Shown: piece after piece, positions 5,639 through 30,829 of the stretch | Layout of the letters: every line of letters starts with the position of its first letter | Position numbering within the stretch: position 1 is the stretch's first letter | Assembly: GCA_041946735.1 (NCBI GenBank) | Contig: JBHGAY010000038.1 | Coordinates: 1-36,220, forward strand | Reading direction: 5' to 3' | From: Candidatus Eiseniibacteriota bacterium | Lineage (GTDB): Bacteria; Eisenbacteria; RBG-16-71-46; CAIMUX01; VGJL01 | DNA length: 36,220 nucleotides | Notes under the pieces: model-generated | Told to the model about the DNA's origin: nothing | Database searches by the model: none | What the model saw: only the letters and a program-made list of their open reading frames with translations | Made by a program: the position numbers and the translations under genes

Positions 5639-5781
5639 GCTTCGGTTTCTTGCTTTCCGGGGGAGAGACGGCCCGAGGTGGGGAAGCTCGACGAGGGCCG
5701 GATGCCGCCCGCCGCGCTGCGCCGCGTCGTCCTCGTCGTATCGCGTCGCGTCGCTTCGCGGGATCCCGGCGGATCCGTGAG

Positions 5782-5861
5782 GCCGTTTCCCTACGCTGGC
5801 ATCACCCAGATCAGGTGCTCGGGGTCTCTTCTCAGTCCCACCTCGGGACACCCCCAACGAC
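5782..5861 (-). ncRNA. TPP riboswitch (THI box)
   Basis: Minus strand reads GTCGTTGGGGGTGTCCC..GGGACTGAGAAGAGACCCCGAGCACCTGATCTGGGTGATGCCAGCGTAGGGAAACGGC, matching the GGGG..CTGAGA..ACCC..ACCTGAT..GCGTAGGGA core. Upstream of thiO. Confidence 0.95.
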
Positions 5862-5871
5862 CGTTGCAGGC

Positions 5872-25677: not shown

Positions 25678-27078
25678 ATGATCCGTTTGCTGGCCGCACG
25701 GTTCGTCGTGCTTCTTCTCGTCGGTCTCTCATCGCCGCCCGCCTGGGCAGCCACCACTCATCTCATTCTCCCGGATGGGACGGGAGACTTCCCCGACATC
25801 CGTAGCGCCATCGTGGCTTCCGCATCCGGGGACACGCTCGTTCTGGGCGACGGCACCTTCACCGGCCCCGACAATCGAAGCCTCTCCTTCCTCGGCAGAT
25901 CGCTCGTCGTACGCTCCCTGAGCGGCTCGCTCGCCTGCGTCATCGACTGCGAGAACGCGGCGGGCGGCTTCCGCATTCAAGGCGATGGGATCACGATCAC
26001 GCGCGGATACGCGGAAACCACGGGAGGTGGAGCGATCCTCTGTCAGGGTCCGATCGGCCCGGTGATTCGCAACTGCCGTTTCGTGAGTAACCGGGCGGTT
26101 GGCTGCGGCCCCGCGGGAGGAGCGATCCGGATCACCGGATGCGCGATGAAGATCTACGACTGCCTCTTCGAGGACAACAATTCCGCCGGGTTCGGAGGAG
26201 GCATTGCCTGCCATCAGGAAGCCAACGTTGAGTTGCTTAGTTGCACGTTCCTGGGAAACGCCGCCACGGAGGGTGGCGCGGTCGAGGTGCGCGGCTCGAC
26301 GTTGACACTGACCGAGTGCCTGCTCATCCGCAACGAGGCGTATATCGCGGGCGCCGCTTCGGCCTGGGACAGCTCGACGTTCACCGTCCGTCGTTGCACG
26401 CTCGCGGAGAACATGGCGAGCGGCGATGTGAGCGAGATCTGCGTGCCGGGAGGGAGCGGTTCCGGACCGGTCCGCGTCTTCGTGGAGCACTCGATCCTTG
26501 CCAACGGCAACTCACGCGCGATCTTCTGCGGGAACTTCGGCGCTTTCGATGTCGCGTGCAGCGACATCTACGGCCATCCGAACGGGAACTGGACCGGCTG
26601 CACCAAAGACTTGCTCGGGGTGGATGGCAACATCTGCGAAGACCCGCTCTTCTGCGACGAGGCGAACGATGATTTCACGATCCGCAGCGACTCTCCCTGC
26701 GGGCCTGATCACGATCCTGAGTGCGGTCTGATCGGAGCGCTGCCCGTCGGCTGCTATGCGCCCGCGGGCGCGCCGGCCATCATCGAGCCGGCGGCGCTCG
26801 CCCTGCGGGTCGCAGGCGCGAACCCGGCTCGCGGCGAGGCGCGGATCGTCTACTCGATCCCTCCGGCCCTTGCCGGAAGCCCGGTCACGATCACGGTGCA
26901 TGACGCGACCGGCCGCCTGGTCCGCCGGCTGTTCGAAGGGAACGTCGCCGGTGACACGGGCCTGCTCGCTTGGGACGGCCGCAGCGGAGCCGGCGCGAGG
27001 GCGCCGTGGGGCATCTACTTCTTCCGGATAGTGGCGGGATCGGCAAGCGCGACGGAGCAAATCGTGCTGTTGGAGTGA
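25678..27078 (+). CDS. Secreted right-handed parallel beta-helix protein with C-terminal FlgD-Ig domain
   Basis: PDGTGDFPDI..GDT..GTFTG, repeated C.F..N.A..GGAI units, GNICEDPLFC, C-terminal WDGRSGAG..GIYF. GGAGG RBS. Confidence 0.88.
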   Translation: MIRLLAARFVVLLLVGLSSPPAWAATTHLILPDGTGDFPDIRSAIVASASGDTLVLGDGTFTGPDNRSLSFLGRSLVVRSLSGSLACVIDCENAAGGFRIQGDGITITRGYAETTGGGAILCQGPIGPVIRNCRFVSNRAVGCGPAGGAIRITGCAMKIYDCLFEDNNSAGFGGGIACHQEANVELLSCTFLGNAATEGGAVEVRGSTLTLTECLLIRNEAYIAGAASAWDSSTFTVRRCTLAENMASGDVSEICVPGGSGSGPVRVFVEHSILANGNSRAIFCGNFGAFDVACSDIYGHPNGNWTGCTKDLLGVDGNICEDPLFCDEANDDFTIRSDSPCGPDHDPECGLIGALPVGCYAPAGAPAIIEPAALALRVAGANPARGEARIVYSIPPALAGSPVTITVHDATGRLVRRLFEGNVAGDTGLLAWDGRSGAGARAPWGIYFFRIVAGSASATEQIVLLE

Positions 27079-27110: not shown

Positions 27111-27139
27111 CGGCCGTCTCTCGCTGTGGGAGACGGCCG
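27111..27139 (+). terminator. 12-bp GC hairpin after the beta-helix gene
   Basis: CGGCCGTCTCTC-GCTGT-GGGAGACGGCCG. No U tract. Confidence 0.5.
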
Positions 27140-27182
27140 AGTCCGTTGCGCTTCCCGCCGAGTACCTGTGAATCTGTGTATT

Positions 27183-27272
27183 AGTGCGCGCGGCCCGCTC
27201 CCTACGGATGGAACAGCGAGCCGGCCGTGGTCGGCTTGCTCCCTACGGATGGAACAGCGGGTCGCGCGCACT
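27183..27272 (+). ncRNA. Candidate structured leader RNA: 14-bp closing stem, two identical 22-nt repeats, central hairpin
   Basis: GCTCCCTACGGATGGAACAGCG at 27197-27218 and 27238-27259. AGCCGGCC-GT-GGTCGGCT lies between them. AGTGCGCGCGGCCC (27183-27196) pairs with GGGTCGCGCGCACT (27259-27272). Confidence 0.55.
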
Positions 27273-27282
27273 GGAGGCACGG

Positions 27283-28737
27283 ATGCGAGATGTGTGGGTG
27301 GTCTTGGAGGAGCGCACGCGTGACTGGGATGCGCTCGGGCGCCAGCGACTGGCGAGCGCGATCTGGGAAGACTACGTCTCCATCCGCTTCGGCCGTACGG
27401 CGGATGCCCGGGCGCTCGAGTACCTCTACCCTTACCTGAACAATGCGGACCGCAGCACGCGAGCGCGTGCGCTCGCCGTGGCGGCAAGGGTCTTCGAAGG
27501 GCGCGGCACCCGAGTCATCGAGCATCTCAGGTACTTCGCAAACAACCCCGACCTCTTCCTGCGCGACCGCGCCGTGACCGTCCTCGGCGCGACGGTGACT
27601 GGCTTGCGCGACGACGTGATCCTGGAAGTCTTGTCGCCGTACCTCCGCAATCGGAATCAGTTCATCCGCAAGCTCTCTCTCGTCGCGCTCGGCAAGGCCG
27701 CCGCCGGTCAAGGCTCGGCGCGCGTACTCGCTGAGATCCGGCGCGTCGCCCAGTTGCCCGGACCCCGAGAGGATGAAGTCCGGACCGCCATCGCGAACGC
27801 CTTCGCCGGCCGACCCACCGAAGAGACCTACGCCGAGGTCGCCGGGCCGGCGCCCCTGGAGAGCATCGAGCGAGACAACGCGCTCGCGACCGCCGTGCTG
27901 GTTCGAGGCGCAGGAGAGGAGTGGTACCGCCGCGCCTGCGAGGAAGTGTTCGAGCCCCGGCTGCAAGCGCCAGGCGAGACCGGCTGGAGGCGCGACTTCA
28001 TCCGCCGCAAAGGGATCGAGGCGCTCTGCTATGCCGGCGCGGGAAGAGGGATGGAGCCGCTCCGGCGCATTCTGCCCCTGCGCGGTGATCGGACGACGGG
28101 CCACGCCATTATGTCGGAGGCGCTGCGTTGTTTCGCCGGCGCCGACCCGGTCAACCGCGAGCCGCTGATCGAGTTGGCGAAAGCCGGCGACCTCGTCGCG
28201 CAACGCATTGCCGCAGTCTGCCTCGGGCGGCTCGTGATGGGTCGAGAGGATGAAGAGGCGATCGGGGTGCTCCGCGGAATCTGCGAGGGGGCGAAGAGCA
28301 GCGAGGTCCAAGCGGCCGCGTTGATCGGGCTCGGCATGGCGGCGCGGTCGAGTTGCGACGACGGACTGCGCCGTCTCTGCCTCAGTCGTTTGGCGAACCC
28401 TGAGACCCTGACCGCGGCGCTCCGTGCTCTCGGGATGATCCTCCTCGGCTCCGGGAGGAGGGACGTGTTCGACGCGGTTTGCCGAGCGGCACGGGAACGT
28501 GAGGCCGAACCGGTGCGCAGCCGGCCGCACAGCAAAGCGCTTGCCGCCTGCTACCGCACGATCGGCCTCATCTATCTCGGCACAGGCTCGGATGAGCCGG
28601 TCGGCTTCCTGCTCGACGCGCTGGCGCGGCCGCCGCGGAGCTCGCGGGACGCGTACCAGCGGGCCGCCGCGCGCGCGCTTATCCTGGTTGAGTTCAGCGA
28701 GGCAGCACTGGGTTGGGACTACATCTCTTTCGTATGA
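27283..28737 (+). CDS. All-alpha repeat protein with proteasome/cyclosome (PC)/HEAT-like repeats
   Basis: ATG after GGAGG. Units such as AALRALGMILLGSGRRDVFDAV, YRTIGLIYLGTGSDEPVGFL, LVALGKAAAGQGSARVLAEI, AAVCLGRLVMGREDEEAIGVL. Confidence 0.8.
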   Translation: MRDVWVVLEERTRDWDALGRQRLASAIWEDYVSIRFGRTADARALEYLYPYLNNADRSTRARALAVAARVFEGRGTRVIEHLRYFANNPDLFLRDRAVTVLGATVTGLRDDVILEVLSPYLRNRNQFIRKLSLVALGKAAAGQGSARVLAEIRRVAQLPGPREDEVRTAIANAFAGRPTEETYAEVAGPAPLESIERDNALATAVLVRGAGEEWYRRACEEVFEPRLQAPGETGWRRDFIRRKGIEALCYAGAGRGMEPLRRILPLRGDRTTGHAIMSEALRCFAGADPVNREPLIELAKAGDLVAQRIAAVCLGRLVMGREDEEAIGVLRGICEGAKSSEVQAAALIGLGMAARSSCDDGLRRLCLSRLANPETLTAALRALGMILLGSGRRDVFDAVCRAAREREAEPVRSRPHSKALAACYRTIGLIYLGTGSDEPVGFLLDALARPPRSSRDAYQRAAARALILVEFSEAALGWDYISFV

Positions 28738-28741
28738 GCCG

Positions 28742-29122
28742 ATGGCGAAGTTCAATCCCGACTTCTGGGAGGTGACCATCTCCGCGGAGAGCTGGCGCCG
28801 GTTCTCCACTGAGCATCACCTCTACTACGAGTCACCCGAAGAGGCGAGGGAGCGCCACGCGCGCCTCGTACGGGCGGAAGCAATGCTGCCGCAGCTCCGC
28901 GCTCTCATGAACGAACTCCTCACATCACGGCAGCGCGAGGTCGTGACCCTGTACTTCCTGGCTCGCCTAAACCAGCGCCAGATCGCGGACAAGCTCGGCA
29001 TCACCCAGCAGGTCGTGTGCGAACACCTCTACGGAAAGATGCGGAATGGCCACCTGGTCGGCGGCGCGCTGCGCAAGCTGCGCAAAGCGTGCGCCGAACG
29101 GGGCATCGGGTGGGCAACGTAG
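28742..29122 (+). CDS. Stand-alone sigma-70 region-4-like HTH protein (126 aa)
   Basis: LTSRQREVVTLYFLARLNQRQIADKLGITQQVVCEHL..ALRKLRK. No region 2. Starts 4 bp after the upstream stop. Confidence 0.82.
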   Translation: MAKFNPDFWEVTISAESWRRFSTEHHLYYESPEEARERHARLVRAEAMLPQLRALMNELLTSRQREVVTLYFLARLNQRQIADKLGITQQVVCEHLYGKMRNGHLVGGALRKLRKACAERGIGWAT

Positions 29123-29238: not shown

Positions 29239-29281
29239 GCCGCTGCGTGTGTGAGGTAGAATCCCCGGCACACGCAGCGGC
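29239..29281. repeat. Perfect 13-bp inverted repeat with 17-nt loop
   Basis: GCCGCTGCGTGTG (29239-29251) and CACACGCAGCGGC (29269-29281). Loop contains TAGAAT. Confidence 0.8.
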
Positions 29282-29325: not shown

Positions 29326-29347
29326 CGGAACCGTGGGAGACGGGACG

Positions 29348-30829
29348 ATGGAACTTCTGGGCCGGTCGATTCGGAACCTGCTCATCGCCCCGCGACGCAT
29401 CGCCGTGGTCGACGATACCCGAGCTTGGCGTGCGATCCATCTCTATGGGGGCGCGCTGCATTTGGCGAGGGAGATCGAGCGGAGGACCACCCGGCCCCAC
29501 ATTGGCTTGATGCTCCCCACCTCGGGACTCACCCCGATGTCAGTTCTAGCGACCTGGGCGTTGGGACGAACCATCGTGCCAATCAACTACCTGCTTCCTT
29601 CTGGGCAGCGCGACAACATCATCCGCAACGCGGAACTCGACACGGTCATCACGGTGACCCCGATGATCGAGCGCTTTGGGGACCTGCCCGGAGCAGTCCA
29701 GCAGATCCGCCTCGACCGACTCTCCTTCGGGGGATTGCCCCCGCTACGCCGGCCGGTGTCGCGTCCCGAGGATCACATCGCCGCCCTGCTCTACACCTCC
29801 GGCACATCCGGCGGACCCAAAGGGGTGATGCTGACCGCCGGCAACCTGACGGCCAATGTGAGACAGTGCGTGGAATGGGCAGCCCTGCCCCGCAGAACGG
29901 TCTTTCTCGGTGTTCTTCCGCAGTTCCACTGCTTCGGCCTGACGGTGCTGACGCTCCTGCCGCTCTGGCTCGGTTCGAAGGCGGTCTACACCGCCCGGTT
30001 CGCTCCGAAGAGAGTGCTGGAGCTGTTGCTCGAGCACCAACCGACCATCGTCCTTGCGATCCCTTCGATGCTGAACAGCCTGCTCAATGCCAAGGACGCC
30101 ACACGCGAGCACTTCTCCTCGGTGCGCTACCTGGTTTCGGGTGGGGAACCTCTGCCGCAGAGCGTCTTCGATGGATTCCGGGAACGCTTCGGCATCACGC
30201 TGAACGAAGGCTATGGGCTCACGGAGACCTCCCCGGTCACCAACTGGTGCCGCCCCGAAGAGCATAAGCGCGGCTCCGTGGGGCCAGCGTTGCCCGGGGT
30301 ACAGCAGAAGATCGTCTCCCTCGACGGTTCGATCTTGGGTGCCAATGAGGAAGGCGAGGTGCGGATCAAGGGACCGAACCTCATGAAGGGATACTACAAG
30401 CTCGAAGAGGAGACGGCCGCCGCCTTCGACGAGGAGGGCTTCTTCCGGACGGGAGATATCGGGCGCATCGACGCGGATGGTCACCTGTTCATCACGGGTC
30501 GCCTGAAAGAGATGATGGTGATCGGGGGCGAGAACGTCTTTCCACGGACCATCGAGGAGGTGCTCGATCGACATCCTGATGTTCTCTGTTCCGCAGTGAT
30601 CGGCATCCCGGATCCCGTTCGTGGGGAAGCCGCGGTCGCTTTTGTCGAGTTGGTCGCCGGAGCGGACTTCGATGAGACACTGCTGCGAGGGCACTGCCGC
30701 CAGCGCCTCGCGCCTTACCAGGTCCCGCGTCGCGTGATTCGCCTGGAGACGATGCCGCGCAACGCGACCGGCAAGGTCCTGCGTCGCGAGCTGCGTGCGA
30801 TCCTCGACGAGCAGCGAGTCTCTCTGTAA
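29348..30829 (+). CDS. AMP-dependent acyl-CoA/acyl-ACP synthetase
   Basis: LYTSGTSGGPKG, LPQFHCFG, EGYGLTETSP, FRTGDIG, GRLKEM..GGENV, PRNATGKVLR. Confidence 0.93.
   Translation: MELLGRSIRNLLIAPRRIAVVDDTRAWRAIHLYGGALHLAREIERRTTRPHIGLMLPTSGLTPMSVLATWALGRTIVPINYLLPSGQRDNIIRNAELDTVITVTPMIERFGDLPGAVQQIRLDRLSFGGLPPLRRPVSRPEDHIAALLYTSGTSGGPKGVMLTAGNLTANVRQCVEWAALPRRTVFLGVLPQFHCFGLTVLTLLPLWLGSKAVYTARFAPKRVLELLLEHQPTIVLAIPSMLNSLLNAKDATREHFSSVRYLVSGGEPLPQSVFDGFRERFGITLNEGYGLTETSPVTNWCRPEEHKRGSVGPALPGVQQKIVSLDGSILGANEEGEVRIKGPNLMKGYYKLEEETAAAFDEEGFFRTGDIGRIDADGHLFITGRLKEMMVIGGENVFPRTIEEVLDRHPDVLCSAVIGIPDPVRGEAAVAFVELVAGADFDETLLRGHCRQRLAPYQVPRRVIRLETMPRNATGKVLRRELRAILDEQRVSL

Follow-up and report, generated by a model that had tools for sequence, protein, structure and literature searches.

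The window analysed here, i.e., 36,220 nucleotides (nt) of contig JBHGAY010000038.1 (positions 1 to 36,220, forward strand; assembly GCA_041946735.1) from a Candidatus Eiseniibacteriota bacterium, carries a module of three contiguous parts on one strand. The parts are a predicted structured leader RNA, a gene for a PC/HEAT-repeat alpha-solenoid (open reading frame ORF1, product P0001), and a gene for a protein that has region 4 of a sigma factor only (ORF2, product P0002). An earlier note on this DNA, referred to below as the original prediction, had described the same three parts at the same places, and this layout was confirmed (Table 1), with 10 nt between the leader and the ATG of ORF1 and 4 nt between the stop of ORF1 and the start of ORF2. 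A two-block motif was found in addition at the 5' end of the module; the last bases of the motif are at the same time the first ones of the leader stem. No further ORF lies inside the module besides ORF1 and ORF2, and each of the two is single-copy in the genome of the window. The parts are conserved together across phyla, and we tentatively read the module as a self-contained autoregulated transcription cassette, a reading to which we give close to an even chance.

Table 1. Features of the module and of its boundaries in the window.
Feature	Position	Strand	Basis or remark
Hairpin, left module boundary	27111..27139	+	10-nt arms, 100% complementary; fold z -4.6
Promoter-like or operator-like motif AGTACCTGTGAA-N3-TGTGTATTAGTG	27161..27186	+	Two conserved blocks
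Leader RNA, rod-like hairpin (predicted)	27183..27272	+	Inverted repeat, fold, covariation
Repeat copy 1, GCTCCCTACGGATGGAACAGCG	27197..27218	+	5' side of the symmetric internal loop
Repeat copy 2, identical, GCTCCCTACGGATGGAACAGCG	27238..27259	+	3' side of the symmetric internal loop
GGAGG ribosome-binding site	27273..27277	+	Read from the sequence; 1 nt past the leader stem, 5 nt before the ATG
ORF1 (P0001), PC/HEAT-repeat alpha-solenoid, 484 amino acids	27283..28737	+	Pfam; predicted Rpn2/Rpn1-like toroid
ORF2 (P0002), sigma-70 region-4-only protein, 126 amino acids	28742..29122	+	Pfam, family alignment, AlphaFold2 model
Hairpin, right module boundary, 117 nt past the ORF2 stop	29239..29281	+	Fold z -4.0

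Loci of the ORF2 family were collected from one genome per species, with the two ORF2 motif words FNPDFWE and VGGALRKLRK as seeds. The scan found 127 relatives, 80 loci were kept, and ORF1 homologues were sought at these by tblastn. They were found at seven of the 80 loci, i.e., directly upstream of the ORF2 homologue at six (L010-L015) and downstream of it at the seventh (L062). Wherever the ORF2 homologue of a genome locus was at least 55% identical, the ORF1 homologue stood directly upstream (six of six, L010-L015), and all six carry the leader before it. The records of these six loci are labelled Armatimonadota, Fibrobacterota, and Planctomycetota (four records, two of them Phycisphaerae/Phycisphaeraceae). 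The divergent locus L062, also labelled Planctomycetota, shows the inverted order, with the sigma-4 gene first and the toroid gene second. Its leader sits between the two genes, only before the toroid gene, and the leader therefore belongs to the toroid gene and not to the sigma-4 gene.

An independent scan of metagenomes used only the two loop words of the leader. It returned 28 stretches, of which eight were true leaders (seven distinct sequences) and the remaining 20 were unrelated tandem repeats or coding DNA. All eight leaders were followed by an ORF1 homologue. Behind it, three stretches reach an ORF2 homologue, four end at the contig end, and one (L118) has another gene. The leader was present in 15 of 15 loci with the toroid gene, 14 of them beyond the window (six genome records, L062, and metagenome contigs). 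The pair of genes was adjacent in 11 of the 12 loci with enough DNA to judge, and L118, the leader of which is identical in sequence to that of L110, was the sole exception. A GGAGG or GAGG precedes the homologous start codon in most relatives.

The neighbours of the module differ by locus, e.g., cellulase, SNF2 helicase, sulfatases, B12-binding protein, M48 peptidase, formamidase, and others. With adjacent genes, a constant leader, and unconserved surroundings, the three parts behave as the self-contained unit that the original prediction had proposed; the two genes do co-occur, and a conserved leader is present. Of 60 genomes related to that of the window, none was found to carry ORF1. ORF2 gave only four weak matches in the same 60 (E 8.5e-5 to 4.4e-4), in frames of 206-266 amino acids, which are probably domain 4 of ordinary sigma factors. 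The absence of ORF1 from these relatives agrees with the accessory region that had been suggested, but the GC content of the module (0.677) equals that of the genome (0.684) and does not set the region apart. Because of the unconserved neighbours, the absence from the 60 relatives, and the genome-like GC content, the pair is best described as a portable yet long-resident cassette.

P0001 was recognized in Pfam as HEAT_2 (36.6 bits) and PC_rep (PF01851; 27.5 bits, cut-off 21), both above cut-off, and its distant relative at L062 reached 76.7 bits for PC_rep. The only other Pfam match of P0001 was a sub-threshold Mur_ligase, and no match was obtained in NCBIfam. The AlphaFold2 model is an all-helical solenoid with a predicted local distance difference test score (pLDDT) of 91.9 and a predicted template modelling score of 0.89. 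In Foldseek, the best solved matches were proteasome Rpn1/Rpn2 (E 1e-7, template modelling score 0.44-0.50), and the top 24 rows were Rpn1/Rpn2 (PSMD2) chains. VIA realignment to Rpn2 chains gave Z 21.2-19 over ~350 residues, with a root-mean-square deviation of 5.4-7 and an identity of 11-14%; residues 1-484 of the model aligned to residues ~348-767 of the Rpn2 PC toroid. The 50 VIA rows listed were all Rpn1/Rpn2 chains of the 26S proteasome except for one designed repeat protein. Over all fold matches listed, Rpn1/Rpn2 chains, importins, PP2A-A, and designed repeat proteins were seen, and no Ro60 entry. The prediction of an Rpn2/Rpn1-like PC toroid holds at the level of the modelled fold, and the PC-repeat protein of the original prediction was borne out by the PC_rep score and by this fold.

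Rpn2 and Rpn1 (PSMD1/PSMD2) are subunits of the eukaryotic 26S proteasome, and they have the PC repeats and the toroid fold in common with P0001. P0001 differs in that it would correspond to just the toroid domain and lack the N- and C-terminal domains of the Rpn proteins, and in that it is bacterial and linked to a sigma-4 gene. The family is small, i.e., 95 cluster representatives at E<=1e-3 among 1.84 billion, of which ~20 are full length. Bacterial stand-alone toroids of this kind with a clear genetic partner offer a handle on the roles of the toroid outside the proteasome.

P0002 matched Sigma70_r4 of Pfam at 32.6 bits (cut-off 24.1), and no Sigma70_r2 match was found at E<=0.1. All NCBIfam sigma models were far below their cut-offs. 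To the profile of sigma factors of the extracytoplasmic function (ECF) type, TIGR02937, the protein aligned only in the C-terminal half, i.e., positions 88-154 of 165. By sequence profile, the nearest solved chains were region 4 of SigF (E 1.1e-6), SigB-type, YlxM-type, WhiG, and FliA. The best Foldseek matches were sigma-4 domains at E ~1e-2, weak as expected for a small domain. In the AlphaFold2 model (pLDDT 81.4), residues 1-30 are of low confidence and are followed by a long helix (32-59), a helix-turn-helix (HTH; 62-97), a beta-hairpin (99-106), and a final helix with the word ALRKLRK. Only these ~30 low-confidence residues precede the linker helix. The sigma-4-only HTH protein of the original prediction is therefore well founded on the region 4 score, the missing region 2, and the sigma-4 fold.

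The word-index search for the P0002 family started from 215 candidates and gave 186 relatives; the 120 that were listed are full-length matches with 60-87% identity. Two motifs are conserved, i.e., FNPDFWE in the N-terminal part (in all 32 aligned relatives), which lies within the low-confidence residues of the model, and VGGALRKLRK at the C-terminus. Region 4.2 of E. coli sigma-70 presumably closes with the word ALRKLRK too, in which case the beta-hairpin of P0002 would be an insertion into the recognition-helix region. YlxM/UPF0122 and GerE-type proteins resemble P0002 in being ~110-130 amino acids around a sigma-4/LuxR-type HTH, and they differ from it in that P0002 has its own FNPDFWE motif and the beta-hairpin insertion. 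YlxM scored 24.3 on P0002 against a Pfam cut-off of 22.7, but 27.3 against 80 in NCBIfam, and GerE reached 13.5 bits against a cut-off of 23.5; both score below Sigma70_r4. No specific family for P0001 or P0002 was found in NCBIfam, PADLOC, or PHROGs, of which the last gave only generic sigma/HTH matches.

The sigma-4-only family is widespread. Most of its genome loci carry the label Poribacteria, and others the labels Latescibacterota, Hydrogenedentota, Planctomycetota, Armatimonadota, Fibrobacterota, and Gemmatimonadaceae, and the family is tied to a private, promoter-like motif that crosses phyla. In a protein atlas, sigma-region-4-only proteins of ~110-140 amino acids are a large class with many sizeable clusters, most names of which merely repeat domain labels. 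Hydrogenedentota (616 members), Myxococcota, Bacillota, and phages were the taxa recorded most often for those clusters.

The binding of P0001 to P0002 was examined by co-folding. The pair scored 0.52, and the best of three controls 0.01; the runs agreed in at least 43% of contacts, the partner pLDDT was at least 60, and the rating of the tool was 'weak support'. Of the 157 solved complexes used for calibration, 116 reached the mark, as did two of 215 mismatches. Scores of 0.60 or lower were held by only 18 of the 157 complexes and by both mismatches, and a pass in this range is wrong in the majority of cases, except where the pairing was already likely. The original prediction had made the solenoid the partner of the region-4 protein. 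As a conserved gene pair this stands, and for physical binding the co-folding score gives a weak indication.

The two-block motif, which the original prediction did not contain, is the strongest clue to the control of the unit. It is kept at the same place in every module locus of which the aligned stretch reaches far enough upstream, and it is unique in the genome of the window. The form TACCTGTGA-N6-GTA occurs exactly once per genome, at the module, in five of five module-bearing genomes, and the reversed control gave 0. At L062 (2000-2640), the sigma-4 gene and the toroid gene carry separate copies. In toroid-less loci of other phyla, sigma-4-family genes are preceded by variants in which the downstream block TGTGTATAGGTG is kept and the upstream block differs. 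In 30 of the 80 loci, the strict form was found at most 700 nt upstream of the sigma-4 gene, whereas its background frequency was 0.018 per kb; a looser form was present in most of the 80. The upstream block changes with the class of the predicted recognition helix, i.e., QQxVxEH pairs with AGTACCTGTGA, RRVVSQH with AGTGCATCCG, VPSVSQH with AGTGCCTTATA, PQQVVSQH with AGTGCCTGTAA, and QSTVSRH with GTATGCATA. That the block tracks these five classes is consistent with direct recognition of the motif by the sigma-4 protein.

In one Poribacteria genome (G061, the genome of L040), the motif was found at nine sites and the reversed control at one. Two of the sites lie upstream of ABC-2 permeases, one each upstream of a TPR protein and a WD40 protein, four upstream of further ORFs, and one at the sigma-4 locus itself. 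The four ORFs have no convincing Pfam domain, and one of them shows a marginal AGOG match. These nine motifs (L092, L094, and L096-L102) are of the AGTGCATCCGAAAATGTGTATAG type and look like a small regulon, in contrast to the single site of the module genomes. At three Poribacteria loci (L028:5380-6010, L032:5400-6010, and L040:5350-6010), two motif copies stand before the sigma-4 gene. The first copy is followed by hairpins, and the second by a conserved ORF of ~27 codons (..NHTTLN.N.L..RRWCLCP..).

The best surviving of the alternatives, although unlikely, is a split sigma factor. P0002 would then supply domain 4 for the -35 element of the module's own promoter, and P0001 or an unlinked protein would supply core binding and -10 recognition. 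The match of P0002 to the C-terminal half of ECF-type profiles fits this, as do region 4 of SigF as nearest solved relative and the two-block, single-copy, promoter-like motif. There are also precedents: SigO-RsoA of B. subtilis and Sig7-Sig8 of Tn916, as far as described in the excerpts of the reports, each have a sigma-4-bearing subunit that works together with a partner to activate its own promoter (10.64898/2026.10.01.756105; PMC7826278). In those excerpts, the likeness to the module extends to a small sigma-region-4 protein co-transcribed with its partner and to a dedicated promoter before the own operon, which suggests positive autoregulation. However, the partners described there are small and carry a region-2-like segment, whereas the partner in the module is a 484-residue PC/HEAT toroid without a region-2 signal, and a symmetric structured leader is a feature of the module that the excerpts do not mention for either system.

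The defining trait of a split sigma factor is a partner with a region-2-like part, which the module lacks. P0001 gave no Sigma70_r2 match at E<=0.1 and is modelled as an all-helical toroid. No region-2-only gene lies in the module, and most members of the sigma-4 family have no such partner adjacent. In the window's own genome, the 23 region-2 matches were all in frames of at least 211 amino acids on other contigs, in a test that the high GC content of this genome limits.

ECF sigma and anti-sigma pairs provide a second comparison. They share with the module a co-transcribed regulator and binding partner and a probably autoregulated promoter, and the sigma-4 domain of P0002 is of the ECF/group-3 type. 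In contrast to these pairs, P0002 has no domain 2 and is not a complete sigma factor, the partner gene comes first, and P0001 has no match to an anti-sigma family in Pfam or NCBIfam.

The leader is a conserved structured RNA family as judged from the alignment of its sequences. Its inverted repeat has arms of 17 nt (27183-27199 and 27256-27272) that are 94% complementary. Its direct repeat has a unit of 33 nt (27191-27223 and 27232-27264) at a spacing of 41 nt and with the identical 22-nt core GCTCCCTACGGATGGAACAGCG. The core is present in two exact copies and nowhere else in the 4.89-Mb genome at 0-2 mismatches; at three mismatches, one unrelated further site appears. The predicted fold has an energy of -69.3 kcal/mol, against a mean of -48.4 for shuffled sequences (z -5.75), and none of 200 shuffles was as stable. 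From its base to its tip, the rod has an outer stem, an internal loop region with dyad symmetry, an inner stem, and a loop of 4 nt. Between the outer and inner stem, the same ~15-nt sequence CCCUACGGAUGGAAC lies on both strands, and nearly every position of it is conserved.

The fold was examined in an alignment of 14 leaders. The outer stem (16 pairs) and the inner stem (10 pairs) both covary, and most internal-loop columns are invariant. Of the 32 pairs in the consensus hairpin, 15 show compensatory double changes; at the column pair 17/86, for example, C-G is found in four sequences, G-C in four, U-A in four, and A-U in one. Paired cells amounted to 94.9%, compared with 83.2% for shuffled partners, and none of 500 shuffles matched the alignment on any of five measures. 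When the partners were slid by one to three columns, only 34-49% of the cells were paired. The stems hold 45 G.U cells and nine A.C cells. This excess of G.U over A.C, together with the compensatory changes, argues that the selected structure is an RNA in the direction of the genes and not duplex DNA. The cross-strand pairs predicted in the loop region (CC/GG, central CG/CG, and GG/CC) are dyad-symmetric, and, being invariant in the 14 sequences, they give no covariation signal there.

A covariance model built from the 14 leaders detected the untrained, divergent leader of L062 at 36.7 bits (E 8e-5). In this leader, the central CG/CG appears by eye to be replaced by GC/GC. In the window's own genome, and likewise in each of five other module genomes, the model gave a single match, i.e., the trained instance itself. 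The alignment produced by the model search, which includes a reverse-strand match at L110, was left out of all counts. Searched against Rfam 15, the leader gave nothing at the gathering threshold and neither a Y RNA nor a known riboswitch; at E<=10, only noise of microRNA-type hairpins was seen (20.5 bits at most, cut-offs 70-90). The leader is thus a covariation-supported structured RNA family, absent from Rfam 15, with an unusual exact two-fold symmetry.

Other explanations of the repeats were rejected. A REP, MITE, or CRISPR-like repeat was ruled out, since the 22-nt core, the covariance model match, and the motif are each single-copy in the own genome. A coding leader was considered as well. 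A GTG-started frame crosses the leaders of the window and of L011, whereas those of L012-L015 have none, and the repeats, at 41 nt apart, fall into different reading frames.

Two unrelated metagenome contigs, one of them of low GC content, carry the same loop word in a different setting. In each of them, a short hairpin with CCCTACGG(A/G)TGGAA behind it forms a unit that is present twice in tandem (L111:1350-1407 and L123:72-127, both on the reverse strand). The units of L111 lie just 5' of a ribosome-binding site and start codon, and the covariance model scored only 18.8 bits there. Tandem arrays with a period of ~20-38 nt and units with CCCT(A/G)CGG.TGGAA were seen in L108, L117, L106, L120, L122, and L125/L126, and are probably chance minisatellite matches to the two-copy scan pattern.

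As a riboswitch, the leader would bind a small ligand at two symmetry-related sites and so let the cassette respond to a metabolite; this alternative ranks after the split sigma factor and is improbable. It would account for internal loops that are almost invariant across phyla while the stems covary, for the compact rod, and for the lack of a match to known families. However, no conserved expression platform was recognized, i.e., no U tract is present and the spacing to the ribosome-binding site varies from ~10 to ~75 nt. Neither gene under control would encode a transporter or an enzyme, the one product being scaffold-like and the other a regulator, and exact dyad symmetry is, as we infer, more typical of the site of a dimeric protein.

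Less likely again is a DNA-level operator, in which the repeats would serve the HTH protein as a roadblock or looping site and the hairpin would be secondary. The two identical 22-bp words start about four helical turns apart, and an HTH protein is encoded in the same operon. Compensatory changes in 15 of 32 pairs and the prevalence of G.U over A.C are, however, expected for RNA and not for duplex DNA, and at L062 the sigma-4 gene has the motif without the repeats, which go with the toroid gene.

A particle for RNA surveillance like that of Ro60 and Y RNA, to which the original prediction had drawn an analogy, or the defence or stress module that it had also considered, is very improbable: a toroid-shaped repeat protein does stand beside a small, very stable structured RNA in a patchy taxonomic distribution, but P0001 has neither TROVE nor vWA among its Pfam matches at E<=0.1 and no Ro60 among its listed fold matches, the leader has no Y-RNA match and is joined to its ORF, directly before the ribosome-binding site and start codon with no terminator between, and on the side of defence the neighbouring genes are ordinary and unconserved, the composition is native, PADLOC 2.0 gave weak generic matches only (E 7.6e-4 for a HEAT segment, and E 9.6e-6 for the HTH of CARF3 regulators), and viral contigs held neither protein relatives nor a leader.

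The autoregulated transcription cassette is the reading that we prefer. The layout on which it is built is a two-block motif, a strand-specific and dyad-symmetric leader, a toroid gene, and a sigma-4 gene; the leader goes with the toroid gene, and the motif goes with both genes. The sigma-4 protein would act at the upstream, -35-like block of the motif and so drive its own operon, either on RNA polymerase in place of domain 4 of a sigma factor or as a GerE-like activator. The toroid would bind the sigma-4 protein, probably through the conserved N-terminus of low model confidence, and could be its partner or co-factor or an anti-factor-like brake. The symmetric leader may be a cis-regulatory RNA that sets the amount of toroid protein. 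It would most likely be bound by a dimeric protein beside the ribosome-binding site, with the product of the leader's own gene as the first candidate, and may possibly also stabilise the 5' end. Autoregulation of the module is plausible, and the role in it that the original prediction gave to the repeats is plausible as an inferred one. The single motif site implies that the output of the circuit is the toroid itself, or that the sigma-4 protein has a motif-independent effect on RNA polymerase.

Several observations weigh against this cassette reading. The ORF1 homologue is missing from 73 of the 80 ORF2-family loci. Most of these 73 bear the label Poribacteria and some the labels Latescibacterota, Hydrogenedentota, or Gemmatimonadaceae, and their ORF2 homologues are 39-45% identical. 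As most sigma-4 loci have no toroid gene, the sigma-4 protein needs no toroid to function. The leader is likewise absent from the 22 toroid-less loci scanned with the covariance model, in which no match was found at E<=1. At L118 (1241-3868), the leader and toroid gene are followed by a different ORF and not by a sigma-4 gene. The binding of P0001 to P0002 is a modelled one with weak support from co-folding. The link between helix class and motif is equally well explained by common descent, each class being one clade. No sigma-70 consensus promoter was found at the motif by a consensus scan, and -35/-10 registers were tried and rejected, as the sigma-70, ECF, sigma-F, and sigma-B consensuses gave no convincing fit. 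The module genomes searched contain no second target of the motif. The transcription of the leader and its start are predicted from the DNA alone, and the leader-binding protein is a putative candidate. Simple occlusion of the ribosome-binding site is weakened by the variable distance from leader to start codon, which ranges from ~10 to ~75 nt across the loci.

A more specific form of the cassette, which would amount to a new kind of transcription control, is unlikely but has a real chance. The free-standing sigma-4 domain would dock on RNA polymerase and redirect it to a private promoter, and the Rpn2-like toroid would restrain this domain and gauge its own amount as a dimer on the dyad-symmetric leader. 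If true, the module would be a closed loop of protein, RNA, and promoter with no other target in the genome, and PC-repeat toroids would be ancient modules for binding RNA or regulators that predate the proteasome. The single-copy motif makes the circuit closed and small enough to be rebuilt in a test tube or laboratory host, and such a circuit makes the working of sigma-4-only proteins directly testable.

Autoregulatory leaders of messenger RNAs are bound by their own gene product, e.g., ribosomal-protein leaders, and hairpins at the 5' terminus can act as stabilisers. The module leader resembles autoregulatory leaders in being a structured 5' leader with conserved loops, directly before the gene and next to the ribosome-binding site. 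It differs in the exact dyad symmetry of two ~15-nt loop strands and in having no Rfam family. We know of no example in which an alpha-solenoid toroid or a sigma-4 protein regulates itself through its own leader. The parts each belong to known superfamilies, but the RNA family, the link of toroid and sigma-4 protein, and the private motif are in none of the libraries searched, i.e., Rfam 15, Pfam, NCBIfam, PADLOC, and PHROGs. Literature searches aimed at this layout found no description of it either, in agreement with the original prediction, in which no described system of this layout had been recognised.

The original prediction had also bounded the module by strong hairpins. Both fold strongly, but both lack a U tract, and the consensus scan placed a terminator at neither of them. 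The left hairpin, which has a terminator-like look, lies behind the stop (27078) of the upstream gene. This gene (25678-27078, forward strand) encodes a protein of 466 amino acids in which a right-handed beta-helix is combined with an FlgD-Ig-like domain at the C-terminus. On the downstream side, the nearest neighbour (29333-30829) encodes an AMP-binding acyl ligase, the ortholog of which in a sister genus (G002) is 73% identical and has no module next to it. The DNA upstream of that ortholog is unrelated, and no clean insertion boundary was seen by tblastx, which is noisy in high-GC DNA. Elsewhere in the window, a thiamine pyrophosphate (TPP) riboswitch was identified at 5771-5865 on the reverse strand (70.8 bits, gathering score 54.3), and it is the sole match at the Rfam gathering level in the window.

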